Notes under the pieces: model-generated
The model's database searches: none
What the model was told of the DNA's origin: nothing
Seen by the model: the letters and a program-made list of their open reading frames with translations, nothing else
Source of the DNA: a virus
Taxonomy: Duplodnaviria; Heunggongvirae; Uroviricota; Caudoviricetes
IMG/VR virus record: IMGVR_UViG_3300042006_000024
Length of the DNA stretch: 64,000 nt
Direction: 5' to 3' (one strand)
Translations under genes and position numbers: made by a program
Shown: positions 4,079 to 23,340 of the stretch, in pieces
Position numbering within the stretch: position 1 is the first letter of the stretch
Layout of the letters: the number at the start of each line of letters is the position of its first letter

Positions 4079-4166
4079 GATTTAATTCCTTCTTCACGTT
4101 GTTTGTTTCGATGTGTTCATGGTACGTCGAACGAGATAGGTTGTAAAGCCTACCTCGCGAATATTT

Positions 4167-4520
4167 TCATTTATTTTTCGACTCCCTACCAATTCGAATC
4201 TGTTCAGCCTCTTCAAGTGCCTCTTCCAGCGTCAGGTCTTCTGTTGTGCTTGCTGTAGGGGATTCAAGAAATGGGAGCTTGATGGGCGTCGGTTCCGGCT
4301 CTTCGGGTATCGACACTGGTTGTCGCTGCACATGTGCCCCTGATATCCCCGACACGGTTGATTCAGCAGCGTAGCTTAGCGCTCTGAACATGTGAACGAA
4401 CACGGGTCTGACATCAGTGCCAGTGATAAGCAAGATCGACAAGAAGATAATAACAAAGGTCTTCATCACAATTCTCCAAGCTATCAGCGACTTGCGGCGG
4501 AGGGTGGGGCTTCCAGACAA
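4167..4520 (-). CDS. hypothetical secreted/membrane protein (likely start at MKTFVIIF)
   Basis: N-terminal hydrophobic segment, Pro/Glu-rich tail; follows spanins. Confidence 0.5.
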   Translation of the reverse strand: MSGSPTLRRKSLIAWRIVMKTFVIIFLSILLITGTDVRPVFVHMFRALSYAAESTVSGISGAHVQRQPVSIPEEPEPTPIKLPFLESPTASTTEDLTLEEALEEAEQIRIGRESKNK

Positions 4521-7497: not shown

Positions 7498-9840
7498 TCA
7501 TTCCTCGTCGTCAAGGAATTCCTCATCCTTCTGTACTTCTTTTTCGATAAACACATTCAGTTCACGCAATTTGTCCATGTGCTGAACATACTGGTTAACA
7601 TAATCAACATCTTCACTGTCGAAGATCATCGGGTAGTCATATACCACGCCGTCGAATATCGTCTTAGCAGTTGCTAGGGCGTTTGACGCAAGTGTGGATG
7701 GGTTAAATGTGGCGTCATGATCCAAGAACCGAATGTTATACGGCAGTTTAGAGTAAACATCCTCATCCGATAGATTAGAGACTAACGACAATGCCTTAGC
7801 CAGGTCACTATTAGGACTGCTTTCGATAAAACGTTCAGCCCGACTAACGATCTCATCAGCTAGGCGACGGGCATCACTATCCATGAACTTGGCCATTACC
7901 GACTTGATATTAACGTCAAAACCGTAGTTATCAAGCTTGTATTTCAATGTCACTGCACGAATGTAATCGATGTCGTAGGTGTTGACCACTTTGATCGCAT
8001 TAGCACCAAACATCTTCTCGGCTTTCTTCAGAGCAGGTGTCTTAACGATGATCAGCATATCGATTTTAAACATGCGGCAGAATGCGAACATCGACCCACC
8101 TACCGAAGTAGCAACAGTATGGTGAAACTCATCACCATCCAGTGCCGATGCAGGTTCACCAACTAGAGTTCTAGAGGGCCGCGCAACTGTTACGTCGGCT
8201 TCAAAGTAACGCTCTTGTAGGAGCAAGTAATTTTTACCGTTAACAACATCGGCAGTAACAATCTTTTCATTGGTATAGTTGTATGTCAGGATACCTGTTG
8301 TTGGGTCTGTGATCAACTCGAACAGCTTCACACGCACGCTGTCAGTCGCTATACGGGCAGCGGCTTTCGCACGTACTGTAGGCCCTTGCAGGGCTTTCAG
8401 CGCATCACGTTGGGCTTTACGCTCAGCCTTATCAATAACAAGAAGATCGGCAGCAACACTGAACTCGATATAGTCACCGAAGATTTTAACCAACTCATCT
8501 CGAACAGCCTGTTCAACCAGAACATCAGTGAAGAACACACCAAAGAATCCGGTTGAATCTTTGACCAAAGACCGTGCAACGCGCTGGAAGCCTTTGTCGT
8601 TGCCCTGCAGGATAACGATCTTGCGTTGGCGCAACTTGCTGAAGGTCATTCCTCCGACGTAATCGAGTGAATGTCGCTTCACTTGACCACGACGGTTCTC
8701 GGCAAAGTAGTAGCTGTCAAGTCTGCTGTCTTCATTTGTAGACTCTTCAAACTCGGCGTTCATTACCTTGATGAAGTTGTCGTCTGCAAGGGTGCGAATA
8801 CTCACACTGTTGAAGGTGAACATGTCATAAGCCCATGCACCTACACTTTCCTCAACCAGAGCAATTGCGTCAGGTACGTTGTCAACTTCGCTATCAAGTT
8901 TGGCTTGTGTGTCGGCACAGAACTGATTGATCACTTCCTTAACGCGCTTGATGAATTGCTTTTCAGTCTCTTCATCAAAGGAGATCGTTTCACGCGAAGC
9001 CGCAACATCCAGTTCACCGATGTCGAACTTGACGGTCAAGGTGTTGTTCTTGAAGAACGCGCATTCGCTTGGGTTGAAGTGAGATGCAAAGGTCTCAGAC
9101 ACGCTAGGCACATGATAGGCAACGTTACCCATCACTGCGGTAATCGTGTTACGTTCCCACCCATCCTTCGAATAGGTCGACCAGAACGATCCTTCTTTAG
9201 CAAGACGAAGCGCTTTGCTGTTGTCGACTGCGATAGAACCACCGACGACTTCAGGGGTGACGACAAACCACTTGAAGACCTTCACTGCATCACTATTGAA
9301 CTGATTGAAGTCAGTTGTCTTGACAGGAACAGTCACACGCACGCCGTTAGGTTCGGTCGTTTCGCTCTTGCTGATCAGCGATGTGGCAGGCTCACCTTGC
9401 ATGTTGATGAAGGCATTGAAGTGGTATTCATAGCCATTCTTGCGTGCACGGATGTTGAAGCTGTCGCAGTAGGAGAACGGCGTTTTCGAACCCAGACCAA
9501 ATCCACCAATTACATCGTTGCTTTCTGTCTTGGTTGATGTAAAATACGAGGTATAGATGTTCTCCACATCGTCTGCATCCAGACCGATACCGAAGTCTTC
9601 CACGTAGAATTCGGGTTCCCAGGTGTTTGGCATATGCACCAAAATTGGCCGTTCAGGGCAACCTGCCTGGACATGGCTATCATGCGCGTTACAACTCAGC
9701 TCACGAATGATTGCCTCGATCTTGCGCGAGTACAATGCCGAACTCAGGATCTGGAACGCTTTCGCGCTTGCCTGAATGGTAAACTTCTTTTCGTTATTAC
9801 CGTTCGTCAGGATCAAATTATCTTCTTGGCGTATCTTCAC
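7498..9840 (-). CDS. rIIA: RIIA protein with N-terminal GHKL/HATPase domain (GTG start at 9840)
   Basis: KAFQILSSALYS...IRELSCNAHDSH, DFGIGL, GGFGLGSKTPFSY. Confidence 0.9.
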   Translation of the reverse strand: MKIRQEDNLILTNGNNEKKFTIQASAKAFQILSSALYSRKIEAIIRELSCNAHDSHVQAGCPERPILVHMPNTWEPEFYVEDFGIGLDADDVENIYTSYFTSTKTESNDVIGGFGLGSKTPFSYCDSFNIRARKNGYEYHFNAFINMQGEPATSLISKSETTEPNGVRVTVPVKTTDFNQFNSDAVKVFKWFVVTPEVVGGSIAVDNSKALRLAKEGSFWSTYSKDGWERNTITAVMGNVAYHVPSVSETFASHFNPSECAFFKNNTLTVKFDIGELDVAASRETISFDEETEKQFIKRVKEVINQFCADTQAKLDSEVDNVPDAIALVEESVGAWAYDMFTFNSVSIRTLADDNFIKVMNAEFEESTNEDSRLDSYYFAENRRGQVKRHSLDYVGGMTFSKLRQRKIVILQGNDKGFQRVARSLVKDSTGFFGVFFTDVLVEQAVRDELVKIFGDYIEFSVAADLLVIDKAERKAQRDALKALQGPTVRAKAAARIATDSVRVKLFELITDPTTGILTYNYTNEKIVTADVVNGKNYLLLQERYFEADVTVARPSRTLVGEPASALDGDEFHHTVATSVGGSMFAFCRMFKIDMLIIVKTPALKKAEKMFGANAIKVVNTYDIDYIRAVTLKYKLDNYGFDVNIKSVMAKFMDSDARRLADEIVSRAERFIESSPNSDLAKALSLVSNLSDEDVYSKLPYNIRFLDHDATFNPSTLASNALATAKTIFDGVVYDYPMIFDSEDVDYVNQYVQHMDKLRELNVFIEKEVQKDEEFLDDEE

Positions 9841-10374: not shown

Positions 10375-10761
10375 TCAGTAGCAGCTATAACCTTTTGTGC
10401 TACGGGCTTCGAAGATCACCTTACCGAGCTTGCCCTCATCAACCATTTGATCGAAGTCAGTCATGAAGCGCGCATCGAACGACGCGTAGGACGACTTCTT
10501 GATGGTCAACGTGTCGGTCTTTTCGACCACGTCGAACATGTCTGCTGGCTCTGGACGATTCCAACCTTCAACAATCACCACATACGGGTCGTAGCTGAAG
10601 GTGTGTTCAGAGTCAAGACGTTTCTTCTTGTGACGGCACAGCACTTTGACCGCGTTGTTGTACTGTGCATACTTCTGATGGTCTTTGACTTCGATCAGGG
10701 TAATCTCATGTTTGATGATGTTGCCCATGAACTCTGACTTACGGTACATTGTTGCTTTCAT
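10375..10761 (-). CDS. hypothetical protein
   Basis: ORF track, GAGG RBS. Confidence 0.65.
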   Translation of the reverse strand: MKATMYRKSEFMGNIIKHEITLIEVKDHQKYAQYNNAVKVLCRHKKKRLDSEHTFSYDPYVVIVEGWNRPEPADMFDVVEKTDTLTIKKSSYASFDARFMTDFDQMVDEGKLGKVIFEARSTKGYSCY

Positions 10762-10774
10762 GATCTAATACCTC

Positions 10775-10993
10775 TCACAAATTCCAACGTTTATTGTATG
10801 CTTCAATATCTGACTTCAACCCCCAGGAAACGACCTCTGTGCCTGGATGAGCTTTCATCGCTTTGAACTGAGCATCGAGGTAGTCTTCACCTTCGATCTC
10901 ATATTCAGGGCATTTGCCAAGAGGGGTTGACCCGTCTTCATTACACAGTTGAATCAAATAAGTCTTCATGTGGTATCCAATCAGTGTTTGCAT
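10775..10993 (-). CDS. hypothetical protein
   Basis: ORF track. Confidence 0.55.
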   Translation of the reverse strand: MQTLIGYHMKTYLIQLCNEDGSTPLGKCPEYEIEGEDYLDAQFKAMKAHPGTEVVSWGLKSDIEAYNKRWNL

Positions 10994-14607: not shown

Positions 14608-16101
14608 TTACAACACTTGCCTCAGGCTCATCTTGCGCACGCGTACAGTGGCTGATGGAGCACCACTGGTCGATAGGTAGCAAGCAAGACGCAGACGCAC
14701 GTCAGTGGCATCAGCGGGCATCACGAAGCGTGGTGAACGAATGAAGCCAGCAGTTGCAACAGGCTGAATAGGACTGGCGTTGTCGTATCGATCACCATCC
14801 CAGAGAGCGATAGCACCAGACACAGCAGTTACCGTTGCACCGAGTTGCAATGACAGGACATTGGTAGCCCCTGCATCAAGCTCATATTCGCAGACAGCCT
14901 CATAGGTAGCACCAGGCACGCATTTAGTGTGTAGGCTGATTTGACGGAGAATGTCGACAGCGGCAGCAGATGTTGCAGCAATACCACCAATGACGACTTG
15001 TTGCCAATCACTCACTTTCGAGTAAGTGCGAGTCACACCAGTTGTACCTGTCGCGTTAGTACCACCCCAGCCATCACCAAGAACACCACTACCACCTGTC
15101 CCAGGAACCCCTGCAGTGCCCAAGAACAGCGGGTTAACCGATGCATCACCTGTGACGTTAGTACCAGCCACCCAGACGTTGTCAGCATTAGGCATGATGA
15201 TCTCAACAGGCGTCATTGTGTTCATGACATCGCCCAGCGGGTAGCCTGTCCAGTAAGCACCAACTGTACGAGGATGCAGACCGTCGTGCGTGTAGCCTAG
15301 TTTGATACCTTTCAGATCACCTGAAGCGACGTCAAGTAGTGTCGGCCAGTTGTCAACCACTTTGCAGTTGTTGCTTGGCAGTTCAGCCAGGATGCGGTCA
15401 TGCACTTCGATATGGTAAGCCAGTTGAGCGCCCGACAGGTACTTCTCAGGGAACAGCGCATCACCGCGTGGCATAGGGGTCATGATGATTACGAAGATGC
15501 CAGCAGCAATTAGTTCATCGCGCATCTGACGCAAGTTGACCATTGTCTGTTCAGCAGTCATCGCAGCCGAGCCACGGTCGTTAGTGCCACCCATGATAAC
15601 GCAAGCACCTACACCAGAAGCGATTACGTTGGCTGTACGAGGTTTCATCATTGCAGTAGTGTCACCACCCTGACCATAGTTATCGGTCAACTTGAAGACA
15701 AAGCGTTGTTTGGCGCGACGAAGTGCGTTGCTGATGTAACCGTAGTTTTCAGTACCGTTCGTTGTGGTTGAACACTGAGCGGTAATGCTGTCACCGAGAA
15801 TTGCAATACGGTTGTTAGCAAGGACAAACATCGGCGCGTCCATGAAGCTTTCAGGATCATCGATGAAGCCTTGTAGGTCATCAAAGTCAAGAACAATCGT
15901 CGTGCCTAGATAGGTCATGTTGACCGAGTCACTGTCGATTGTAGGAGGTGAAATGAGGTCGAAGTAAGCTTGGATGCTCTTTGGAAGTTGTACGTTCGAA
16001 ACAAGCAGTTCGCCAGTCTCTTGAACGATCCAACCTTTTTCAGTCAGCACGACATTGCGTTTTCTGATGTGTGGTTTACGTGACCAGGATGGATATTTCA
16101 T
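14608..16101 (-). CDS. SGNH/GDSL hydrolase (putative polysaccharide acetylesterase) with C-terminal beta-sandwich domain
   Basis: ILGDSIT (block I), GQGGDTT (II), MGGTND (III), DGLHP (V); late promoter upstream. Confidence 0.85.
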   Translation of the reverse strand: MKYPSWSRKPHIRKRNVVLTEKGWIVQETGELLVSNVQLPKSIQAYFDLISPPTIDSDSVNMTYLGTTIVLDFDDLQGFIDDPESFMDAPMFVLANNRIAILGDSITAQCSTTTNGTENYGYISNALRRAKQRFVFKLTDNYGQGGDTTAMMKPRTANVIASGVGACVIMGGTNDRGSAAMTAEQTMVNLRQMRDELIAAGIFVIIMTPMPRGDALFPEKYLSGAQLAYHIEVHDRILAELPSNNCKVVDNWPTLLDVASGDLKGIKLGYTHDGLHPRTVGAYWTGYPLGDVMNTMTPVEIIMPNADNVWVAGTNVTGDASVNPLFLGTAGVPGTGGSGVLGDGWGGTNATGTTGVTRTYSKVSDWQQVVIGGIAATSAAAVDILRQISLHTKCVPGATYEAVCEYELDAGATNVLSLQLGATVTAVSGAIALWDGDRYDNASPIQPVATAGFIRSPRFVMPADATDVRLRLACYLSTSGAPSATVRVRKMSLRQVL

Positions 16102-16130
16102 GATGGTTTCCCACTTAGTTATAGTACCAT

Positions 16131-16137
16131 TATTTAG
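16131..16137 (-). promoter_or_regulatory. T4-type late promoter
   Basis: CTAAATA about 30 nt upstream of SGNH start. Confidence 0.55.
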
Positions 16138-16160
16138 TACGTGGGCACTATTTACAGCCA

Positions 16161-16190
16161 AAATAAAAGCCCTTAGTTGGGCTTTTATTT
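16161..16190 (-). terminator. terminator closing the tRNA/ncRNA array
   Basis: aaataaaagccc-ttagtt-gggcttttattt hairpin. Confidence 0.75.
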
Positions 16191-16286
16191 ACAGCTACCG
16201 AATTAAACCCCTTACCGCCACGGGCTAGACCTTGTTACAGGTGGGAGCGCAACTGCTTTATGGGCAGGACGGTTCAGCGCTTTGAT

Positions 16287-16374
16287 TGGAGGTGACGGTG
16301 AGATTCGAACTCACGGACCGTTTCCAGTCTGCGGTTTTCAAGACCGCCGCCATAGGCCACTCGACCACGTCACC
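16287..16374 (-). tRNA. tRNA-Ser(TGA)
   Basis: GGTGACG/CGTCACC acceptor, GCGGT-CTTGAAA-ACCGC, long variable arm, encoded CCA; discriminator is U rather than the usual G. Confidence 0.9.
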
Positions 16375-16383
16375 ATATTCGTT

Positions 16384-16704
16384 TTACTCTGTGCCCATCT
16401 CGGCATCACGCGCTGCTTCACTTGTCCACAGCTTAGCACCTTCGTGAAAGACGACAACATAGTCACCTGAACTTGTTGTCTCACATTCCCATTGACCGTT
16501 AACGATCTTCGGTGCTGAGTAGACTTTGTAATGGTCATCTACATCGAGGTCATATACAATCTGACCACTTCTCAAGTGTTTGACTTCGATTCGACCTTCA
16601 GGTAGCGAACGCTTGCCGAAGATATTGTCGTAGTTGTTGGCGTAGGCCTCACTTGCTGCGCGTGTCTGAATGTTATCGCCTGTAATGTCGTTCTTTGAAG
16701 CCAT
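16384..16704 (-). CDS. hypothetical protein within tRNA array
   Basis: ORF track; NDITGDNIQT...YANNYDNIFGK motif. Confidence 0.6.
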   Translation of the reverse strand: MASKNDITGDNIQTRAASEAYANNYDNIFGKRSLPEGRIEVKHLRSGQIVYDLDVDDHYKVYSAPKIVNGQWECETTSSGDYVVVFHEGAKLWTSEAARDAEMGTE

Positions 16705-16732
16705 CGCTGAATCTCTTGCTGTCTAATGAATT

Positions 16733-16808
16733 TGGCACCCCAGGATGGAGTCGAACCACCAACCAACGGATTTGGAATCCGTCATTCTGCCAATTGAACT
16801 ACTGGGGT
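16733..16808 (-). tRNA. tRNA-Trp(CCA)
   Basis: ACCCCAG/CTGGGGT, ACGGA-TTCCAAA-TCCGT, TTCGA loop, GCCA end. Confidence 0.9.
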
Positions 16809-16815
16809 ATTGTTA

Positions 16816-16894
16816 GGAAGACCGAGGAAGGAGTTAAACCTTCGTATTCAAGTGTCCACTGTTCGCTTGTGCTCTTACGTTCAGCCACTCGGCC
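16816..16894 (-). ncRNA. tRNA-like RNA with enlarged anticodon loop, no CCA
   Basis: GGCCGAG/CTCGGTC, GAAGG-TTTAACT-CCTTC, CAAG/CTTG closing a 13-nt loop. Confidence 0.55.
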
Positions 16895-16901
16895 ATAATA
16901 T

Positions 16902-16984
16902 GAGAGAGTTGTTAAGGGGATCGAACCCTCGACCGCATCAATCGTGTAGTACTCCACAGATCAACACAGCCACCATGCCAACTC
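16902..16984 (-). ncRNA. tRNA-like RNA with 4-nt loop in the anticodon position
   Basis: GAGTTG/CAACTC, AGGG-TTCGATC-CCCT, TGTGG-AGTA-CTACA. Confidence 0.5.
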
Positions 16985-17001
16985 ATAAAATTAATCTGAA
17001 G

Positions 17002-17117
17002 TGCAGTAGGTGTCGGGAATCGAACCCGCAGTCTTAAGCCTTGATCTCTCCACCAGAAGAGAGCCCCAAACAACAGAGCAGGGAATCGAACCCTATACCT
17101 TACCAAAACCTACTACA
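17002..17117 (-). ncRNA. structured RNA with two T-arm hairpins
   Basis: 10-bp closing stem TGTAGTAGGT/ACCTACTGCA enclosing AGGG-TTCGATT-CCCT and CGGG-TTCGATT-CCCG. Confidence 0.65.
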
Positions 17118-17126
17118 TTTCAAAAC

Positions 17127-17202
17127 TGGTGCCGCCATCAGGATTCGAACCCGAGACCCTCTGATTACAAGTCAGACGCTCTACCAACTGAGCTATAGCG
17201 GC
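17127..17202 (-). tRNA. tRNA-Thr(TGT)
   Basis: Canonical cloverleaf, TCTGA-CTTGTAA-TCAGA, ACCA end. Confidence 0.95.
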
Positions 17203-17209
17203 GTGAAAC

Positions 17210-17286
17210 TGGATGCGGGAGCAGGATTTGAACCTACGACATGAGGCTTATGAGACCTCTGTTCTACCAAGCTGAACTACCCCGCT
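17210..17286 (-). tRNA. tRNA-Met(CAT), initiator-like
   Basis: Unpaired 1:72, GCGGGG/TCCCGC acceptor as in fMet; GAGGT-CTCATAA-GCCTC (lacks the full three G-C pairs). Confidence 0.85.
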
Positions 17287-17292
17287 ACAAAC

Positions 17293-17368
17293 TGGCGATC
17301 ACCGAAGCTTTACCTTCAGTCTCGAACCGACATGTCGAATCCGAGTGTGACTTTAAAGCCACGTGACC
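17293..17368 (-). ncRNA. tRNA-like cloverleaf with non-canonical T loop and extended anticodon arm
   Basis: GGTCAC/GTGATC + GCCA; GTGGC-TTTAAA-GTCAC; CTCG..CGAC-AT-GTCG..CGAG; TGAAG-GTAAAG-CTTCG. Confidence 0.5.
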
Positions 17369-17369
17369 A

Positions 17370-17732
17370 TTAAAACTGTTTATGAGCAATCCGGGCGCTG
17401 CCCTCTTGCATCATTGTATATATGACTACTTCTTTATGTTCATCTGGCTCACCGTGAACGAACACAAAGTTTCTAACCTTTGACACTCTTACAACTTTAC
17501 CGTGTTTGATACACAGCGCGTTGTAATGACCTCTTGACTGCATCAGTGCGAAGTCAACTGACTTTGCTTCACTGAAGAGCTTGCGGATCATTGATAGATC
17601 GCGGCCTTCTCTGAAGATGTCAGGATGGAACTGTAAGCGAAAACGCTCACGAAACCTCTTCCTCGCATGGGGTGTTATCTTCACTGTTCGCACTTTGAAC
17701 CTCATCATATATTTGTTGGCGCGTTGCGGCAC
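17370..17732 (-). CDS. hypothetical basic protein, possible RelE/DUF4258-like fold
   Basis: ITPHARKRFRERF N-terminal motif. Confidence 0.55.
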   Translation of the reverse strand: MPQRANKYMMRFKVRTVKITPHARKRFRERFRLQFHPDIFREGRDLSMIRKLFSEAKSVDFALMQSRGHYNALCIKHGKVVRVSKVRNFVFVHGEPDEHKEVVIYTMMQEGSARIAHKQF

Positions 17733-17847
17733 GTTCCATACCGAGTGTGATCTTCTTGCTTGAGCGACCTGGATCGCATTGGCTCAGTGCCCGCTTACCC
17801 CAGTACTCATAACCATCACCCTTTGAACCTCTTACACTTCGCGACAT
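17647..17847 (-). CDS. small basic phage protein
   Basis: MSRSVRGSKGDGYEYW motif recalled from phage tRNA regions. Confidence 0.55.
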   Translation of the reverse strand: MSRSVRGSKGDGYEYWGKRALSQCDPGRSSKKITLGMERAATRQQIYDEVQSANSEDNTPCEEEVS

Positions 17848-18053
17848 TATCGACCCTTCTTAGCTGCGGCTTGTCTGATTACACGAGACTCAACCTTGTT
17901 TGGTATATGCGGACGCTTTGCAAGCTCAGCACGTACTGCGGTGCTTTCGACTTCGAAGTTAATTTGCTCTTCGAATGGCGAGTAACCTTTGCGAAAGCTT
18001 TGTAGCAAGTTCAACAGTTGCTTTGTATGTAGACTTGAATAATCACGAGACAT
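17847..18053 (-). CDS. hypothetical protein (MSRDYSSLHTKQLL...)
   Basis: GAGG RBS before internal Met; stop abuts next start. Confidence 0.55.
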   Translation of the reverse strand: MSRDYSSLHTKQLLNLLQSFRKGYSPFEEQINFEVESTAVRAELAKRPHIPNKVESRVIRQAAAKKGR

Positions 18054-18073
18054 AACAACCTCTTCACTTTGTT

Positions 18074-18175
18074 TGGCGGGGAATTGTCGATTCGAACGAC
18101 TCTTCATAGCTCGATGCTAAGCGTGCTGCCGTGATAACCAGAAGGCCTACCAGCAATCAATTACACTATCACCCC
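18074..18175 (-). ncRNA. tRNA-like RNA with hairpin-expanded D region and 5-nt anticodon-position loop
   Basis: GGGG/CCCC-GCCA ends, GTCG-TTCGAAT-CGAC, TAGC-ATCGA-GCTA. Confidence 0.5.
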
Positions 18176-18180
18176 ATATT

Positions 18181-18256
18181 TGGGCAGGTTAGAAGATTCG
18201 AACTTCAACTGCGAAGCCGTCGCCACGCCGTGTACCCAGATTACACCATAACCTGC
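18181..18256 (-). ncRNA. 8/4-fold tRNA-like RNA without a readable anticodon arm
   Basis: Perfect 8-bp GCAGGTTA/TAACCTGC, 4-bp GAAG-TTCGAAT-CTTC, 5-bp D stem GTGTA/TACAC, ends CCA. Confidence 0.6.
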
Positions 18257-18257
18257 A

Positions 18258-18420
18258 AAATTCTTGAACTGGTTCTACGCTAGTGAGACTTGACACAACT
18301 ACACGCGCGGTTGCATCGCTCCATTCACCTAAAGCCCGTTCTCAGGCTACCTTTATCGAATCGAAGGCTACGTATCAACACTCTACGCAGTTGAACGCGC
18401 TATTGGGCGTGACTTCCAAT
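18258..18420 (-). ncRNA. putative structured ncRNA A (related to element B at 19908)
   Basis: Non-coding; shares AGCCTGAGA(T)ACGGGCT hairpin and CAGTTCAAGAATTT with element B. Confidence 0.5.
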
Positions 18421-18421
18421 T

Positions 18422-18498
18422 TGGTAGAGGGTCTTGGATTCGAACCAAGGAATGTCAGGATCAAAACCTGATGCGTTAGGCCTCTTCGCCAACCCTCT
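18422..18498 (-). tRNA. tRNA-Gln(TTG)
   Basis: AGAGGGT/ACCCTCT, TCAGG-TTTTGAT-CCTGA, ACCA end. Confidence 0.9.
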
Positions 18499-18600
18499 GA
18501 ATTCTTCCTGCTTACCTACATACAGGGACGTTCTCGACGTCGGGCACTGCCTCTCCATCAGATTTAATGACGAACAAGGACTATACAGTGATTTAGTGCA

Positions 18601-18765
18601 TTACTTCAAGTCTTTCTTGATCTCTTTAACAGCTTCCTGCGCGACGTCAGCAATCGGCTTAGTGACTGCACGGGTGACATCAAGCGCGATCTCTACAGGG
18701 GCTGCCACGACTTTCACAACGTCACTTGCAACACCAACCAGACTATTAAACATGCTACCGAACAT
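18601..18765 (-). CDS. small amphipathic protein (54 aa, MFGSMFNSLVGVASDVVKVVAAP...)
   Basis: Manual translation; GGAG RBS. Confidence 0.6.
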   Translation of the reverse strand: MFGSMFNSLVGVASDVVKVVAAPVEIALDVTRAVTKPIADVAQEAVKEIKKDLK

Positions 18766-18803
18766 ATGTATTACTCCACTGTACAGCGTTGATTGAATTA
18801 GAT

Positions 18804-18930
18804 CCGAGAGACAAGGTGCGAGTGACGTGTACTTAGCCAGCGCACCGTTGCCTCTCTGTCAAGCTACCTCGAAGTCATTCCGATTAGACCTTTCGAGCCG
18901 GGGTATTGAACCCCACTTCGTATCGCTTGC
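18804..18930 (-). ncRNA. two-domain structured ncRNA with a T-loop-like hairpin
   Basis: CAAGC/GCTTG and CGAAGT/ACTTCG around GGGG-TTCAATA-CCCC; long hairpin GAGAGGCAA/TTGTCTCTC with GGTGCG/CGCACC. Confidence 0.55.
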
Positions 18931-18933
18931 ATT

Positions 18934-19018
18934 TGGTGCGGACGGAGAGACTCGAACTCTCACTCCCGAAAGAACTTGGGCCTAAACCAAGCGCGTCTAC
19001 CAGTTCCGCCACGTCCGC
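18934..19018 (-). tRNA. tRNA-Leu(TAG)
   Basis: GCGGACG/CGTCCGC, CTTGG-TTTAGGC-CCAAG, long variable arm, ACCA. Confidence 0.93.
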
Positions 19019-19072
19019 GAATTCTCAAGACAGTTTCAAAGCATGTCAAGGCCTGGCGCTTTACAGTTGCTT

Positions 19073-19191
19073 GAGCTTACCACAGCCCACTTTTCTCTGT
19101 ACTGTTTAGAGGTCACACCTCACCGAGATTGGAGTGACAGTACCTATCCACTTTGGGCACGCTCGAAAGCGCTTAGTGCCTGTGGTAGCTC
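19073..19191 (-). ncRNA. three-way-junction structured ncRNA
   Basis: GAGCTACCACAG/CTGTGGTAAGCTC closing stem, GGCAC/GTGCC and GTACTGT/ACAGTAC arms. Confidence 0.6.
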
Positions 19192-19202
19192 GGGTACAAA
19201 AC

Positions 19203-19279
19203 TGGTGGGTCGCCTGAGATTCGAACTCAGGACATCCAGATTAAAAGTCTGGAGCTCTAACCAGCTGAGCTAGCGACCC
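19203..19279 (-). tRNA. tRNA-Lys(TTT)
   Basis: GGGTCGC/GCGACCC, CCAGA-CTTTTAA-TCTGG, ACCA. Confidence 0.95.
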
Positions 19280-19289
19280 GTGAAAGATG

Positions 19290-19403
19290 TATTGGTTGAT
19301 GTAGCGTATGTCAATAAGGGCAACCACGACCTAGTTGAACTGACTCGCTAGCTTCTCCTAGGTTGATAGAGTGCTGTTCGAGCTGACGCTACATCCACCA
19401 ATA
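19290..19403 (-). ncRNA. structured ncRNA closed by an 18-bp near-perfect stem
   Basis: TATTGGTGGATGTAGCGT/ACGCTACATCAACCAATA; internal ACCTAG/CTAGGT stem. Confidence 0.6.
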
Positions 19404-19434
19404 GATCCTTTCGAATATATTGGTACAAATTGAT

Positions 19435-19611
19435 CAGTGTAGAGGTGCGCTATTACGCCAAAGGAGAAGTTAGCCTTACCGTCTCCGGGGTGCCTTCTTA
19501 CTTACCAATTCGAGATGCTGCTTGGGTTTACATTCCCAGCAAACCGCACGTTCGAATCTTGCTCCACTCTTTAAAGGATGGCTGCTTCTAAGCCCACCTT
19601 CCGCTACACTG
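19435..19611 (-). ncRNA. RNA resembling the 23S rRNA uL11-binding domain (H43/H44) with ~105-nt insertion
   Basis: GGAAGGTGGGCTTAGAAGCAGCCATCCTTTAAAGAG ... GCGTAATAGCGCACC closed by CAGTGTAG/CTACACTG. Confidence 0.8.
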
Positions 19612-19619
19612 GGTGAAAC

Positions 19620-19695
19620 TGGTCAGAGTGACAGGCGTCGAACCTGCGACCTCTTGGTCCCAAACCAAGCGCTCTACCAACTGAGCTACACTCTG
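19620..19695 (-). tRNA. tRNA-Pro(TGG)
   Basis: CAGAGTG/CACTCTG, CTTGG-TTTGGGA-CCAAG, ACCA. Confidence 0.95.
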
Positions 19696-19710
19696 ATGAA
19701 CTTTTAAATC

Positions 19711-19857
19711 CTATATCGATTTACTGATTACAGAGATACCATCATGACCACCCATGTACAACGACTTTCGCAGATTTTCAGCATCCACTTCATTCAAGAA
19801 GACATCTACGAACCGACCCTGCACTGTTACGATATAAACGATCATCTTGCTCTCCAT
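19711..19857 (-). CDS. small hypothetical protein (48 aa)
   Basis: Manual translation; sigma70 promoter immediately upstream. Confidence 0.5.
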   Translation of the reverse strand: MESKMIVYIVTVQGRFVDVFLNEVDAENLRKSLYMGGHDGISVISKSI

Positions 19858-19877
19858 ATGTGTTGTCTCTTGTGTCC

Positions 19878-19905
19878 ATTCTACTAGAGTCTAAGCACAT
19901 GTCAA
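19878..19905 (-). promoter_or_regulatory. sigma70-type promoter inside tRNA array
   Basis: TTGACA-16-TAGAAT. Confidence 0.6.
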
Positions 19906-19907
19906 CC

Positions 19908-20040
19908 AAATTCTTGAACTGCTAGGTATTTGGCGGCTAAACGGCGCACTTCCTAGCTACAGCCCGTATCTCAGGCTAAGAGTTATGCCTTCCAACTCAT
20001 AAGGATACGGTCTCCGCGCCGCTCGCGATTCACCCTAAGG
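19908..20040 (-). ncRNA. putative structured ncRNA B (related to element A)
   Basis: GAGTT/AACTC hairpin, AGCCTG-AGATA-CGGGCT, GCTAGG/CCTAGC, CAGTTCAAGAATTT. Confidence 0.5.
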
Positions 20041-20046
20041 TAAATT

Positions 20047-20130
20047 TGGTGCCGCCTGATGGAATCGAACCACATAACCTCAGTACCGGATTTACAGTCC
20101 AGCGTTTGTCCCAGCAAACTTTCAGTCGGC
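20047..20130 (-). tRNA. atypical tRNA with GTA (Tyr) anticodon, 9/3 fold (allo-tRNA-like)
   Basis: GCCGACTGA/TCAGGCGGC acceptor, TGG-TTCGATT-CCA T arm, 5-bp D stem, CTGGA-CTGTAAA-TCCGG, ACCA. Confidence 0.75.
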
Positions 20131-20135
20131 GAATT

Positions 20136-20213
20136 TGGCTGGTAGTCAGGGATTCGAACCCTACTTCATCTGGATTAACAGTCCAGTGCCCTCACCTAGA
20201 TGGCTCACTACCA
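20136..20213 (-). tRNA. tRNA-Asn(GTT)
   Basis: TGGTAGT/ACTACCA, CTGGA-CTGTTAA-TCCAG, GCCA end. Confidence 0.9.
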
Positions 20214-20224
20214 ATAAACTTTTC

Positions 20225-20304
20225 TACAGCAGCGCTCTATTAACCTTTAATCTAGGCCTCAGAGTAGCCTAGCTTCATCCTGATCATATTGAACGCTGTT
20301 GCTA
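20225..20304 (-). ncRNA. putative structured ncRNA at the head of a late transcript
   Basis: GCAACAGCGTTC/GAGCGCTGCTGT closing stem, CTAGGC/GCCTAG hairpin; CTAAATA at 20328-20334 upstream. Confidence 0.45.
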
Positions 20305-20530
20305 GAACAGCTTTGTTTCTGTATGTCTATTTAGTGCTTAGTATATTCTAATATCAGGATAAAACAAAGCTTTTTCGAATTATTTTATCCTGATACCGTA
20401 AATCTTTTCAATACTTCAGGGTTTTGAGGTATGCCACTGTCACTCGACATTGCAACCTTAACCACTTGCCCCAATCTTGCAACAGTTTCTTCATTCCCTA
20501 CACTCCTATATAGTAGTGCCAATTATACAA

Positions 20531-20755
20531 CTATGCTACCCGTTGTAGCAACTCCTCTACAGCAATTTTATCAATTGCTTGTTGCAGCAATTCACCCAAG
20601 TTCGGTTGGACGACAGTTATGCTAACAACAGTCGCTTCAGGAAACTCGGCAATAGCAGAGTCACTTGCACCGTTTGGCATGCAGGCATCATAGACCATAG
20701 CGAAGTTGAACGCTTGGCCATTGACAGTGTCTTGCATCTGTACGCGGTATTTCAT
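20531..20755 (-). CDS. hypothetical protein
   Basis: ORF track; start overlaps upstream stop. Confidence 0.55.
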   Translation of the reverse strand: MKYRVQMQDTVNGQAFNFAMVYDACMPNGASDSAIAEFPEATVVSITVVQPNLGELLQQAIDKIAVEELLQRVA

Positions 20756-20949
20756 TCTTCGGTTTCCTGTTCAGTAGTGCCCTTGGATTGACCTTCATCG
20801 AAAGCCAAATCTTCCTGGGCGTAGTTGGTATGCTCACCTACACGTTTCAGTCCCGTTTCATATTGCTCGCTCCTATCAAGTGGCTGTGGTTCGTAATCAA
20901 CGTTTGCGAATCGACTGCGCATGTCACGTCTACTCCGATCGAATTTCAC
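20752..20949 (-). CDS. hypothetical protein
   Basis: ORF track; start overlaps upstream stop. Confidence 0.55.
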   Translation of the reverse strand: MKFDRSRRDMRSRFANVDYEPQPLDRSEQYETGLKRVGEHTNYAQEDLAFDEGQSKGTTEQETEE

Positions 20950-21404
20950 TTGGCAAAGTGTTGTTTGACAGCGTCAGAAGCAACCTTACCGTCGTACTGA
21001 CCAGCACAGTTAGCCTTCAGCCACTTCATGGCATCGGCCATGTTAGTGATGCTGTTTTGTGTGATGCGCTGGATGATCTGGGAAGCGCTCAACTGTGTCG
21101 GTGTGTACTTTTCCAGCAGTTGATTGATGAAATTGTTTTCATCCATCAGCTTACCACTAACCCGCGAGCATGCCACCTTCAGGCACTCGGCGTTCGAGCC
21201 GTGCATCTTGCGCAGGATCGAAAGGACTGCGAGGTCATCAACCTCTTTACCTACACGTTCACACTCACCGACTACCAGAGTCAAGAGGTTGAACTCAGTC
21301 ACCACGTTAGGCGCTTTGCGGTAAAGATTGCGCATTTCTTTCAGGGTGTCGATCAGCTTCATTACAGTGTTCCTTGTAGTGAGGGTGACGCTTGCCACCC
21401 TCAT
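20946..21404 (-). CDS. YqeY/GatB-domain protein
   Basis: Helical pattern ...LLEKYTPTQLS...MADAMKWLKANCAGQYDGKVAS typical of YqeY. Confidence 0.75.
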   Translation of the reverse strand: MRVASVTLTTRNTVMKLIDTLKEMRNLYRKAPNVVTEFNLLTLVVGECERVGKEVDDLAVLSILRKMHGSNAECLKVACSRVSGKLMDENNFINQLLEKYTPTQLSASQIIQRITQNSITNMADAMKWLKANCAGQYDGKVASDAVKQHFAK

Positions 21405-21419
21405 ATCAGTAGTTAGCGA

Positions 21420-21560
21420 TTACTTCTTTTTCTCGCCGCCAGCGCCACATACAGTGCACTTCAGTGCGCCTTTAGCGTTAGGGTTGTGTACGCGCTGGCC
21501 GGCACCGTGCAGGGCGTCTTGTGCAGCGTGTTTACATTTGCAAGCTTTGATTTCGGACAT
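21420..21560 (-). CDS. small Cys/His Zn-binding basic protein (46 aa)
   Basis: Manual translation MSEIKACKCKHAAQDALHGAGQRVHN...CTVCG. Confidence 0.6.
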   Translation of the reverse strand: MSEIKACKCKHAAQDALHGAGQRVHNPNAKGALKCTVCGAGGEKKK

Positions 21561-21600
21561 CGTTTACTTCCTTACAGTTAGTGGAGTTGCTTTCAAAATA

Positions 21601-21674
21601 TGGTGGGCCCAGCCGGACTCGAACCGACAACCCAAGTCTTATGAGGACTCAGCTCTCCATTGAGCTATGGGCCC
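21601..21674 (-). tRNA. tRNA with CAT anticodon, Ile2 (lysidine) type
   Basis: GGGCCCA/TGGGCCC acceptor, GAGTC-CTCATAA-GACTT, ACCA; resembles Ile2 more than Met. Confidence 0.85.
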
Positions 21675-21680
21675 AGAGTG

Positions 21681-22148
21681 TTACTTATCAGCTTTATTGC
21701 TGTTACAAGTGATGCACATCGTTTGCGTGTTGCTGAGGTTGTTTGCACCGCCTTTAGAGCGTGCATGCACATGATCACATGTAAACAACTCTTCACGACC
21801 ATCCACAAGACCGTATAAGTTCAAGTGATACTTGTCAGTGCCACCATTTACCTGTCTCTCAACTGCGAAGAACGACGCGTAAGCTCCACATCCATGACAG
21901 CGCGTGCCAGTCTTAGCGAAGGTGCGCAAACGCAAGCTGTATAACTTTAGCTCTTGACCCATGATAGTTATCGTTGGGCGATGAGGCGGTAAGCCTATCA
22001 TACCAACAACATCTTCAAGAGGTACAGTGGTCAAACGCTCATAGTTTGATGGATTTCGCATATGTAGTTCCAACTTCAGATGTTTAGTGCAAGTACTGTA
22101 CACTCCTTTGTCTGAAGTGTACAGCATTGTTTTCAACTTACCAAACAA
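21681..22148 (-). CDS. HNH endonuclease
   Basis: CHGCG...CDHVHARSKGGANNLSNTQTMCITCNSNK. Confidence 0.85.
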   Translation of the reverse strand: MFGKLKTMLYTSDKGVYSTCTKHLKLELHMRNPSNYERLTTVPLEDVVGMIGLPPHRPTITIMGQELKLYSLRLRTFAKTGTRCHGCGAYASFFAVERQVNGGTDKYHLNLYGLVDGREELFTCDHVHARSKGGANNLSNTQTMCITCNSNKADK

Positions 22149-22386
22149 ACCAACCCATCACACTACCAATCGGGCCAGTGAAGATGCCGATCAGTTGAAC
22201 CCATGCAACAGTCGATGCTTGACCGATTGTTGGTGCGTCCATAAAGTTCGATATGCACTTCCAAGCGTTCATGATGTAGCCGATGATGCCCAAGATCCAG
22301 ATGAGTACGACAATCAACCCACCGAGTGCGAATGCGTTATCACGCCGCATCATCAAGATCCTCGTCGGACAGGTCTTCGTCTTCAT
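22138..22386 (-). CDS. small membrane protein
   Basis: Two hydrophobic helices. Confidence 0.55.
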   Translation of the reverse strand: MKTKTCPTRILMMRRDNAFALGGLIVVLIWILGIIGYIMNAWKCISNFMDAPTIGQASTVAWVQLIGIFTGPIGSVMGWFVW

Positions 22387-22681
22387 CGTCTACAGGCGCA
22401 GACTTGCCAGACAGCATGATCACTTCGAACAAGTCGGAGTACTGAGCATCTTCCTCGGTCACCACTTCGAACTGGTCTTTGTGGTAGTCACGAGCCATAC
22501 GACGCAGGTACTTCTTGTCGAGGTTGTACTTCTCGCTCAGGGCGTCAATTGACTCCTTGATGTAGGCACGTTCGCCTTCGATGCGGGTCAGGCTGTTGCT
22601 GATTTCCTTGATACCGTCAGCAACCGCTTTGCGATCAACAGGGGACGAAGGGATCACGATTTCTACGATTTCTTTTGCCAT
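22340..22681 (-). CDS. dsbA: T4 DsbA-like dsDNA-binding protein
   Basis: IKEISNSLTRIEG...IKE...LSEKYNLDKKYLRRMARDYHKD pattern matches T4 DsbA. Confidence 0.75.
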   Translation of the reverse strand: MAKEIVEIVIPSSPVDRKAVADGIKEISNSLTRIEGERAYIKESIDALSEKYNLDKKYLRRMARDYHKDQFEVVTEEDAQYSDLFEVIMLSGKSAPVDDEDEDLSDEDLDDAA

Positions 22682-22872
22682 TTTGGATCTACTTCCTTTC
22701 GGTTAGGTTGCAGGATAACCCTGCGTTCAGTGTGAAACGTTACTTCAGGCGAGCGATGATCTTGAGACCATCGATCACAAATCCGAATTGAGTGAAGTAA
22801 TAACCAGTCTTCAGCGACCACACCAGTACAGGGTGTGCGCCTGTGGTTATCTCATCATCATATGCGACGAAG

Positions 22873-23340
22873 TCAGACAGATTGTGCATCTTCAATATCC
22901 ATCAGTACTTCAGCGAGGCGGCGAACATCGTCCCATTTGTGGAGTTCTATCAGTTGATACAAGGCGTCTTTGACGATCTTGATCGACGGATTACCTTCAT
23001 ATGGCGCATTGGCCACGATGCACGTTACAGGCGGCTCCAATTCACCGTGTTCATCAATGAAGTCGACGACCGCGTTGTTTGGCAGTGGCAGTGGAACATG
23101 CACCAAGAACGGAAACATCGCAGTGTCAACTGTTACTTCAGCGCCTTTGAATACGCCGTTGGCATCTTCTGTTGAAGCACGCAAGAAGTCAGCGAGCGAT
23201 TTGGTTTCTTTCAGACCAGTGCCCAGGTAGTCACGAGCCGTCTTAATCCACGGCACCATCAGCATACCGTAGGTGCGACCGCTGTTCAATTCAGGGTTGA
23301 GCGGGCCGTAAAAGTGACCAATTTTTAAACGAAACTTCAT
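22873..23340 (-). CDS. hypothetical protein with ribosomal bL12 C-terminal-like motif
   Basis: VPWIKTARDYLGTGLKETKSLAD vs bL12 [23 protein letters not shown]. Confidence 0.6.
   Translation of the reverse strand: MKFRLKIGHFYGPLNPELNSGRTYGMLMVPWIKTARDYLGTGLKETKSLADFLRASTEDANGVFKGAEVTVDTAMFPFLVHVPLPLPNNAVVDFIDEHGELEPPVTCIVANAPYEGNPSIKIVKDALYQLIELHKWDDVRRLAEVLMDIEDAQSV

Follow-up and report, generated by a model that had tools for sequence, protein, structure and literature searches.

A phage tRNA array that is probably a T4-type cluster of independently exchangeable RNA cassettes

In the 64,000-nucleotide stretch of viral DNA analysed here (IMG/VR record IMGVR_UViG_3300042006_000024, called the window at its full length), positions 16160–21674 carry an array of transfer RNA (tRNA) genes interspersed with small open reading frames (ORFs) and with structured RNAs that are not tRNAs. 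We conclude that this array is probably a tRNA/small-RNA cluster of the T4 early-region type, made up of RNA cassettes that are exchanged independently of one another and are probably matured by the host. The sequence features of the array, their conservation and covariation among related phages and the turnover of the array cassette by cassette are directly observed.

The window is DNA of an uncultured T4-like, pf16-like Pseudomonas phage. Its DNA polymerase shares 74% identity with that of the T4-like Pseudomonas phage pf16 (Chakrabartyvirus), and the matches ranking next, mostly cyanophage gp43, are below 40%. The sequencing runs that contain window DNA are rhizosphere and plant metagenomes, none of which is listed as RNA. 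A T4-like gene set accompanies the co-oriented tRNA cluster. Both the array and every gene in this region are on the minus strand, to which every feature of the window named below is assigned. We compared the array with nine relatives, namely pf16 (L001/L122) and eight metagenomic syntenic loci (within L123–L131), which were reached via homologues (62–88% identity) of the product of the array's 111-amino-acid (aa) ORF (phrog_11136). These homologues came from a homologous-protein search; a scan of metagenome contigs and one of viral contigs with the 111-aa protein returned no relative, and a scan of IMG/VR for the YqeY protein of the locus returned only pf16 and one 8.5-kb contig that ends before the array. 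The protein backbone is constant among the relatives (DsbA-like, HNH, YqeY, 66-aa, 111-aa and 106-aa ORFs), and the RNA content, tRNAs and other units alike, is different in each of the nine. The cultured relative, pf16, carries the ribosomal RNA (rRNA) mimic, the spacer S6 and units like TL5, all of which are described below.

Several non-tRNA units of the array contain T arms. A scan of the minus strand from 16.3 to 21.7 kb for a G-C-closed stem of at least 4 bp around a TTCRANN loop gave 18 matches, 11 of which are in tRNAs and seven of which are extra; the background is five in the rest of the 64-kb window (both strands) and 0.4 per strand in shuffled sequence. The extra T arms belong to the units TL1, TL2, TL3, TL4 (two T arms) and TL5 and to a piece just past tRNA-Leu (~18870–18933). 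The array holds six or seven such tRNA-like units without an anticodon arm. Neither ARAGORN nor the Rfam tRNA model (E up to 10) calls a tRNA in TL1–TL6, in the window or in the relatives, and instead of a canonical cloverleaf, with its 7-nt anticodon loop on a 5-bp stem, other hairpins fold there.

By its fold and the T-arm scan, TL1 (18181–18256) consists of an acceptor stem, a D-like arm and a T arm, encodes CCA and has no anticodon loop; in the relative L125, its acceptor and T stems differ in sequence yet stay complementary through compensatory changes. TL2 (18072–18176) has an enlarged D region, a stunted anticodon arm, a T arm and a GCCA end, and is 86–93% identical in L123, L125 and L131 with two compensatory pairs. 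TL3 (17287–17369) is a closed hairpin unit with a T-arm-like loop (T arm at 17326) and a GCCA end, whose minimum free energy (MFE) has a z score of −2.4. The CCA ends of TL1, TL2 and TL3 stand in a 3′ context that resembles that of tRNAs. Two T arms and a central hairpin are enclosed by a single closing stem of ~10 bp in TL4 (17002–17117; MFE z −3.0), which is kept in L123 and L124 with four compensatory pairs. TL5 (16905–16988), aligned in five phages, comprises a 6-bp closing stem, a long hairpin and a T arm; it has four compensatory pairs, and its central hairpin has been swapped in sequence and is still a hairpin. TL6 (16809–16900) is a tRNA-like unit whose T arm is degenerate.

Units of this kind are not peculiar to the window. 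Among the IMG/VR matches listed, 63 unrelated phage tRNA arrays contain 128 same-strand orphan T arms beside 687 tRNAs; the orphan T arms are about ten times denser inside the arrays than outside, and 52 of the 63 arrays have at least one. With seven beside 11 tRNAs, the window is near the top of the range. As units with orphan T arms are thus common in unrelated arrays, annotation pipelines miss a whole class of phage RNAs. The particular units TL2 and TL4, together with the elements A and B described next, appear to be lineage-specific: in scans of IMG/VR with exact seeds, which are insensitive, TL4 and TL2 gave only chance matches lacking a T arm, and the hairpin of A and B gave no match.

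Element A (19906–20050) is a structured small RNA of five hairpins that immediately follows a tRNA, on its 3′ side, in all relatives carrying the element. It is 82–94% identical in L124, L125, L127 and L128, and eight of its 34 pairs show compensatory change, a number that none of 500 column shuffles equalled; 97.6% of cells in the aligned pairs are paired, compared to 29–44% when the partners are slid. No Rfam match was found for element A. Element B (18258–18421; 88–92% identical in L125 and L123) is, by shared motifs, its paralogue: both contain the TAGCCTGAGA-ACGGGCT hairpin and the 3′ motif CAGTTCAAGAATTT, with the other parts rearranged. The 14-nt CAGTTCAAGAATTT ends A at 19920 and B at 18270 and occurs nowhere else in the array.

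The array also contains a ~175-nt unit at 19436–19610 that mimics helices H42–H44 of 23S rRNA. It was identified by an Rfam large-subunit (LSU) rRNA match (19554–19599, corresponding to model positions 1184–1229, E 7e-5), and by comparison with Escherichia coli 23S rRNA. From 19610 to 19436 it is composed of (i) one strand of an 8-bp closing stem (CAGUGUAG / CUACACUG), (ii) a copy of H43 that has the E. coli loop, the 5′ half of the unit being identical to E. coli 23S rRNA in 34 of 39 bases, (iii) the junction UUUAAAGAGUG, (iv) an insert of ~98 nt with two hairpins, and (v) UUUGGCGUAAUAGCGCAC, the loop of which is identical to that of E. coli H44. Both factor-contacting loops, that of H43 and that of H44, are kept. 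The end of H42, H43 and H44 of 23S rRNA form the domain that binds uL11 and thiostrepton. Compared with this GTPase-associated centre, the unit is free-standing and located outside rRNA genes, its closing helix replaces H42, and its insert interrupts the 5′ strand of H44; we interpret it as a stand-alone copy of the 23S rRNA site bound by uL11 and the factors. In L131 the mimic is 93% identical to that of the window, and the tip of its insert hairpin has changed in a compensatory manner from UGGG/CCCA to UAGC/GCUA. It adjoins S5 (19280–19432), in which a closing stem of ~17 bp surrounds ~80 nt (MFE z −4.7) and which is 95% identical in L131.

The core 17-mer of the mimic is present in at least 118 IMG/VR contigs. 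The sarcin-ricin motif is absent from every locus with this 17-mer among the matches listed, and loci of the mimic family are therefore not rRNA genes. Within the same set of matches, the basal pairs of H43 covary in 59 distinct members with both halves, where four Watson-Crick types occur and 58 of 59 are paired. The register of the closing stem varies across the family, for which reason the longest helix was used for comparison; it averages 8.2 bp, against 5.2 ± 0.15 bp when the flanks are re-partnered. The inserts are mostly 52–304 nt long. In 43 of 58 family loci a same-strand tRNA is located no more than 2 kb away; the loci hold 336 tRNAs on the strand of the unit and none on the opposite one, and the nearest tRNA is a median of 11 nt from the unit. 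The mimic matches no Rfam 15 family above threshold and was not found in the literature searched, so it belongs to a family of phage RNAs that is large and apparently undescribed. A copy in UNO-G1W1 (L002, 4001–4039), an unrelated 98-kb Pseudomonas phage (Otagovirus), lies unannotated between tRNA-Arg and tRNA-Trp, and its H43 half is 100% identical to that of the window over 39 nt. The identity of this half and its position suggest exchange of the mimic among phage lineages whose hosts belong to one genus. We also noted that contig depth at 19531–19677 peaks over the H43 copy in all four metagenome runs and that the loose contig ends continue into genuine bacterial 23S rRNA; short-read mapping to the mimic thus collects host rRNA.

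The spacers between the tRNAs evolve as selected RNAs. Their identity to the spacers of relatives is 73–100%, compared to 46–78% for third codon positions in adjoining ORFs. All 92 nt of TL6 are identical in both L125 and L131; the adjacent tRNA-Trp is 83% identical in L131, and the 106-aa ORF has third-position identities of 68% (L125) and 56% (L131). S8 (18499–18600), a candidate promoter (18580–18609) followed by a structured leader of tRNA-Gln, has 95% identity to its counterparts in L123 and L131; the 54-aa ORF next to it reaches 61% and 46%, respectively, at third positions in these two. S6 (19019–19202) is a conserved spacer that ends in a candidate promoter abutting tRNA-Leu, and its 3′ half is kept in seven relatives at 74–86% identity. 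The mimic and S5 are 93–95% identical in L131. For all spacers except the one with the LSU match, Rfam gave nothing credible at E values up to 10; its 'Plastid-ycf2' matches are the antisense strand of tRNAs and were discarded.

Structural conservation of the spacers, for which the relatives were examined, is thus present both as compensatory changes and as identity above that of synonymous sites, and on these two grounds we regard the spacers as selected RNAs rather than decayed tRNA genes. That they are decaying tRNA pseudogenes and neutral spacer left behind by array turnover would agree with the presence of real tRNAs (tRNA-Asp, tRNA-Gly and tRNA-Cys) near the position of TL4–TL6 in L127 and with the fast turnover of the tRNA content. 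Neutral remnants would not, however, be expected to recur in relatives with the same non-tRNA architectures, where they also escape being called as tRNAs, to exceed neighbouring third codon positions in identity, or to keep their stems by compensatory changes, and we consider this explanation very improbable.

The array turns over one unit at a time. Only three of the ten phages (the window, L131 and pf16) have the mimic; element A is distributed over L124, L125, L127 and L128, TL4 over L123 and L124, and TL2 over L123, L125 and L131. The same is seen among close strains, represented by contigs of further rhizosphere runs. One form lacks a 355-nt segment (19282 to 19638) made up of precisely S5 and the mimic, another, in contigs of run X6, lacks exactly one tRNA-Met (17202 to 17289), and a third is without the 68-aa ORF. 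This unit-wise presence in relatives and strains shows that the array is a string of cassettes gained and lost one at a time. Protein genes can also be found among the tRNAs of relatives: in L129 (10483–10956) and L130 (10931–11395) a gene for a NADAR-domain protein lies between the tRNA-Trp and tRNA-Ser of the array, a position at which the window has the 106-aa ORF alone, and in several relatives a gene of the acyl-carrier type (PP-binding) follows the array.

Candidate promoters of the σ70 consensus type occur at 20551, 20411, 19905, 19049 and 18609. The candidate at 19878–19905 (TTGACA, 16 nt, TAGAAT) precedes the 48-aa ORF and tRNA-Pro and agrees with the consensus in 11 of 12 positions; the one in S6 (19021–19049) reads TTGACA, 17 nt, GAGAAT. 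S7 (18766–18933) consists of the T-arm piece mentioned above (T arm at 18910) and then a long hairpin that spans a promoter (MFE z −2.6). This TTGACA...TAAGTA pair, which would serve the 54-aa ORF, and the S6 promoter are both conserved among relatives; the S7 hexamers do not vary across five phages, in which the stem spanning them covaries. By description, to which this comparison is confined, S7 is similar to the PeSL cassettes of the T4-like phages RB49 and phi1, in which a hairpin is interleaved with a σ70-type promoter; it differs in that one strand of the S7 stem fills the promoter spacer and the other is downstream of the −10 hexamer. The array ends in a likely terminator, a stem-loop followed by a run of T (16160–16190; fold S16), which was read from the sequence.

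The original prediction, made from the sequence of the window, regarded nearly every spacer as a unit closed by a terminal stem and excised from one polycistronic transcript. A single polycistron is unlikely for the whole array because of the internal promoter candidates, some of which are conserved in relatives. No strong promoter was found from 18609 to the stem-loop at ~16160–16190, and this 2.4-kb stretch may be one operon. It comprises tRNA-Gln, element B, TL1, TL2, three ORFs, TL3, two tRNAs, TL4–TL6, tRNA-Trp, an ORF and tRNA-Ser, so that its ORF blocks are flanked by tRNA or tRNA-like units, and co-processing within such sub-operons is plausible. The mimic, S5 and TL1–TL6 have clear terminal closing stems; A, B, S6, S8 and S16 do not. 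Of the at least six further closed-stem RNAs that had been proposed, at least one, the hairpin of S7, is a promoter-spanning stem-loop; in all, the array has about a dozen conserved structured non-tRNA RNAs. Other parts of the inventory were confirmed as they stood: the 11 readable tRNAs, of which ten are called by both ARAGORN and Rfam and the other is an unusual tRNA-Tyr; the six or more tRNA-shaped RNAs with broken anticodon arms; the H43/H44 mimic; and the YqeY protein.

For the transcription units, the processing and all trans-acting functions of the array, we infer the following. Transcription probably starts from several host-type promoters and gives short polycistronic RNAs, of which the longest would run from ~18609 to the terminator at ~16160. 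On them, small mRNAs would be arranged head to tail with tRNAs, tRNA-like RNAs and further structured RNAs. Common to tRNAs and tRNA-like units is the acceptor-stem and T-arm half of tRNA, and TL1–TL3 also have the encoded CCA of tRNAs. This half is what RNase P and the enzymes of 3′-end maturation recognise. The shared half makes the tRNA-processing machinery of the host the most likely agent to cut these transcripts, and by the precedent of T4 such cutting would give discrete stable RNAs and defined small mRNAs. We take the tRNA-like units, A and B to be selected RNAs of the rnaC/rnaD kind known from T4, the most likely roles of which are either processing punctuation or the binding of proteins that recognise the elbow or acceptor end of tRNA.

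Several points weigh against this reading. The covariation tests draw on three to five related sequences each, and the structures were drawn from the same alignments. In L125 the neighbouring ORFs are also 92–96% identical at third positions, so the high identity of the units there may partly reflect recent recombination. An encoded CCA end is absent from TL4–TL6, A, B and the mimic, and the closing stem of A and B is not conserved. Promoters and terminator are consensus matches only, and the count of promoter-like sites in the region (nine) does not exceed that of shuffled sequences (8.2). Each covariation test is modest when taken alone; in combination with the contrast in rates, they rule out neutral decay.

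The units might, on the other hand, act mostly in cis, as leaders, as promoter and terminator stem-loops and as tRNA-like processing signals that set the ends and the stability of their neighbours, with no function of their own once excised. The S7 hairpin that spans a conserved promoter, the leaders S6 and S8 that end in promoters and the two small-ORF blocks flanked by tRNA-like units all fit such a role. A cleavage signal would not need the conservation over the entire length that is seen in TL6 (100%) and in A and B (87–94%), however, and the mimic family keeps rRNA loop sequences, for which processing has no use. Furthermore, rnaC and rnaD of T4 accumulate as stable RNAs (PMC9697503). We therefore consider a mostly cis-acting array unlikely and retain the cluster of exchangeable, host-matured RNAs.

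The original prediction went further and treated the parts as one system acting on host translation or on defences that target translation. Here the mimic, a protein with a bL12-like motif, the tRNA-like RNAs and YqeY would act jointly on translational GTPases or on toxins directed at tRNA ends or EF-Tu. The 155-aa protein in question is encoded at 22873–23340 and was characterised by profile search and by its model. It contains a helix pair (residues ~23–58) resembling that of the C-terminal domain of bL12, with the motif W-I-K-x-A-R-D-x-L-G-T-G-L-K-E-T-K-S-L-A aligning with helix 4-helix 5, and this pair is the best-conserved part in its 17 homologues, all of which are metagenomic. A profile of 13 homologues run against 177,635 PDB sequences returned bL12 as ten of the 11 best matches (E 0.04–1.1); no Pfam family matched at E up to 0.1. 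In the AlphaFold2 (AF2) model, which has a predicted local distance difference test score (pLDDT) of 73, residues 1–95 are arranged as beta-alpha-alpha-beta-alpha-beta, the same order as in bL12. Foldseek ranked bL12 first at E 4, and alignment to 1ctf with VIA-align gave Z 2.5 and a root-mean-square deviation of 3.9 Å over 52 residues at 27% identity. In a wide VIA-align search bL12 is absent from the best 50 rows, which are dominated by the C-terminal helical hairpin, so that residues 1–96 were barely probed. This hairpin is additional to bL12, and the N-terminal domain of bL12 is missing. The bL12-like motif of the original prediction is thus retained as a real local resemblance over a helix pair of ~30 residues, and homology of the fold is, with no Pfam match and a Z of 2.5 for the model, unproven.

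The proposal of joint action finds some agreement in the two factor-contacting loops kept by the mimic, in the conservation of the bL12-like helix pair and its predominance among PDB profile matches, and in TL1–TL3, which keep the acceptor stem, T arm and CCA that end-modifying toxins and EF-Tu see. It is contradicted by the distribution of the parts. The 155-aa protein is found in five of the ten phages (the window, L124, L125, L127 and L131), and all phages of the phage-genome collection searched, pf16 included, lack it. As pf16 has the mimic without the protein and L124, L125 and L127 have the reverse, the two are not obligate partners, and no pattern of co-occurrence links them; units are, moreover, lost singly in closely related strains. 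Support for the bL12 fold is weak (Z 2.5), and Pfam and PDB profile searches found no RelE-like protein among the ORFs of the array. The RelE-like candidate is thus unsupported: in these searches no ORF showed similarity to RelE or ParE, and for the 111-aa ORF, likely the one that was meant, the AF2 model has a pLDDT of 49, too low for a structure search. With single gain and loss of its parts, the array does not behave as one system, and we consider a coordinated arsenal quite improbable. Another form of the idea is that the cassettes are exchangeable decoys, in which the mimic would titrate uL11, uL10 or else a factor or toxin recognising the GTPase-associated centre, the CCA-bearing half-tRNAs TL1–TL3 would soak up defence enzymes that cut or modify tRNAs at the 3′ end or elbow, and the bL12-motif protein would add a layer to a counter-defence directed at host immunity that targets translation; this, too, is a speculative and rather doubtful proposition.

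The canonical tRNAs have a simpler explanation. ARAGORN and Rfam agree on ten of them between 16287 and 21674: tRNA-Met(CAT), the first of the array (21601–21674; Rfam 63 bits), tRNA-Asn(GTT) (20136–20213), tRNA-Pro(TGG) (19620–19695), tRNA-Lys(TTT) (19203–19279), tRNA-Leu(TAG) (18934–19018), tRNA-Gln(TTG) (18422–18498), a second tRNA-Met(CAT) with tRNA-Thr(TGT) (17127–17286), tRNA-Trp(CCA) (16733–16808) and tRNA-Ser(TGA), the last (16287–16374). The eleventh, at 20048–20130, is a non-canonical tRNA-Tyr(GTA) matched by the tRNA-Sec model only (35.8 bits), with a long acceptor stem, a short T stem, a 5-bp D stem and an encoded CCA. Genes of this odd type in L123 and L131, with which it aligns, are named tRNA-Tyr by ARAGORN, and we take it to be a real if unusual tRNA-Tyr. 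All 11 tRNAs encode CCA, followed by AAT, GTT or TAT. Six of the 11 have U34 (UGA, UGU, UUG, UAG, UUU and UGG), and the phage uses CAA, AAA, CCA and ACA for 50%, 40%, 32% and 21% of their families at a third-position G+C content (GC3) of 0.58. Pseudomonas genomes have a very high GC3, and A-ending codons such as CAA, AAA, CCA and ACA are rare in them. Considering (i) the U34 tRNAs, (ii) the free use of A-ending codons by the phage and (iii) their rarity in the host, plain codon supplementation explains the canonical tRNAs well: mostly of the U34 type, they would provide decoding capacity for A-ending codons that are scarce in the GC-rich Pseudomonas host, and they may also replace tRNAs attacked by host defences.

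No gene of these arrays varies more than that for tRNA-Tyr(GTA), which in eight phages falls into at least three sequence types unrelated to one another (copies include the window at 20048–20130, L123 at 8214–8299, L124 at 4090–4174, L129 at 8759–8844 and L122 at 10698–10784), one type being that with a long acceptor stem and a short T stem. This variability is notable because in T-even phages Septu cuts tRNA-Tyr, and the tRNA array with the homing endonuclease SegB is an anti-defence locus (PMC13096335).

The remaining genes of the locus encode proteins. The YqeY-domain protein (20946–21362; PF09424, 36.4 bits against a cut-off of 27; phrog_1460, E 2e-25) is present in eight of the nine relatives' loci, and the ninth, L128, ends before that position. 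Between it and tRNA-Met lies a 46-aa ORF (21420–21560) with two Cys pairs (CxC ... CxxC), which is 84–96% identical in four relatives and has no family match. An HNH endonuclease (21681–22061; PF01844, 34 bits) is encoded beside the first tRNA, tRNA-Met, and a T4 DsbA-like transcription regulator follows at 22340–22681 (phrog_639, E 5e-23; PF11126, 23.9 bits, cut-off 25), which is not a translation factor. The three small ORFs of 68, 66 and 111 aa at 17370–18053 have PHROG matches only (phrog_7399, phrog_11136). The 66-aa and 111-aa ORFs occur in all nine relatives; the 111-aa product and its eight homologues match no Pfam or PDB profile, and a protein atlas returned only unnamed viral clusters for the 111-aa product. 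The 106-aa ORF (16384–16704) is in all relatives and has no family match. Directly downstream of the array terminator, 14608–16161 encodes a 517-aa GDSL/SGNH lipase-like protein; a lipase gene is also found at the end of the tRNA array of UNO-G1W1.

The tRNA arrays of phages have come to be viewed as loci of counter-defence, and attention so far has been on canonical tRNAs only. In the lineage studied here, other RNAs fill about as much of the array as the tRNAs do. To judge by organisation, the closest known system is the tRNA cluster of T4 with rnaC and rnaD. In T4, rnaC (species 1) and rnaD (species 2) adjoin tRNA-Arg and the homing endonuclease gene segB; both are expressed as stable RNAs, and their function is still unknown (PMC9697503). 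The array of the window places this fifty-year-old question about their role on a broader and testable footing. The window units have no sequence similarity to rnaC or rnaD, the endonuclease is of the HNH type in the window and of the GIY-YIG type in T4, and the window has many more units, six or seven tRNA-like ones plus A, B, S5 and the rRNA mimic, compared to two in T4. Common to T4 and, from its sequence alone, the window are co-oriented tRNA genes of the early region, small ORFs, a homing-type endonuclease and non-tRNA RNAs. When folded, rnaC displays a closing stem, internal hairpins and a canonical T arm just before the 3′ strand of the stem (z −4.6), and this architecture is that of the window units TL1–TL5.

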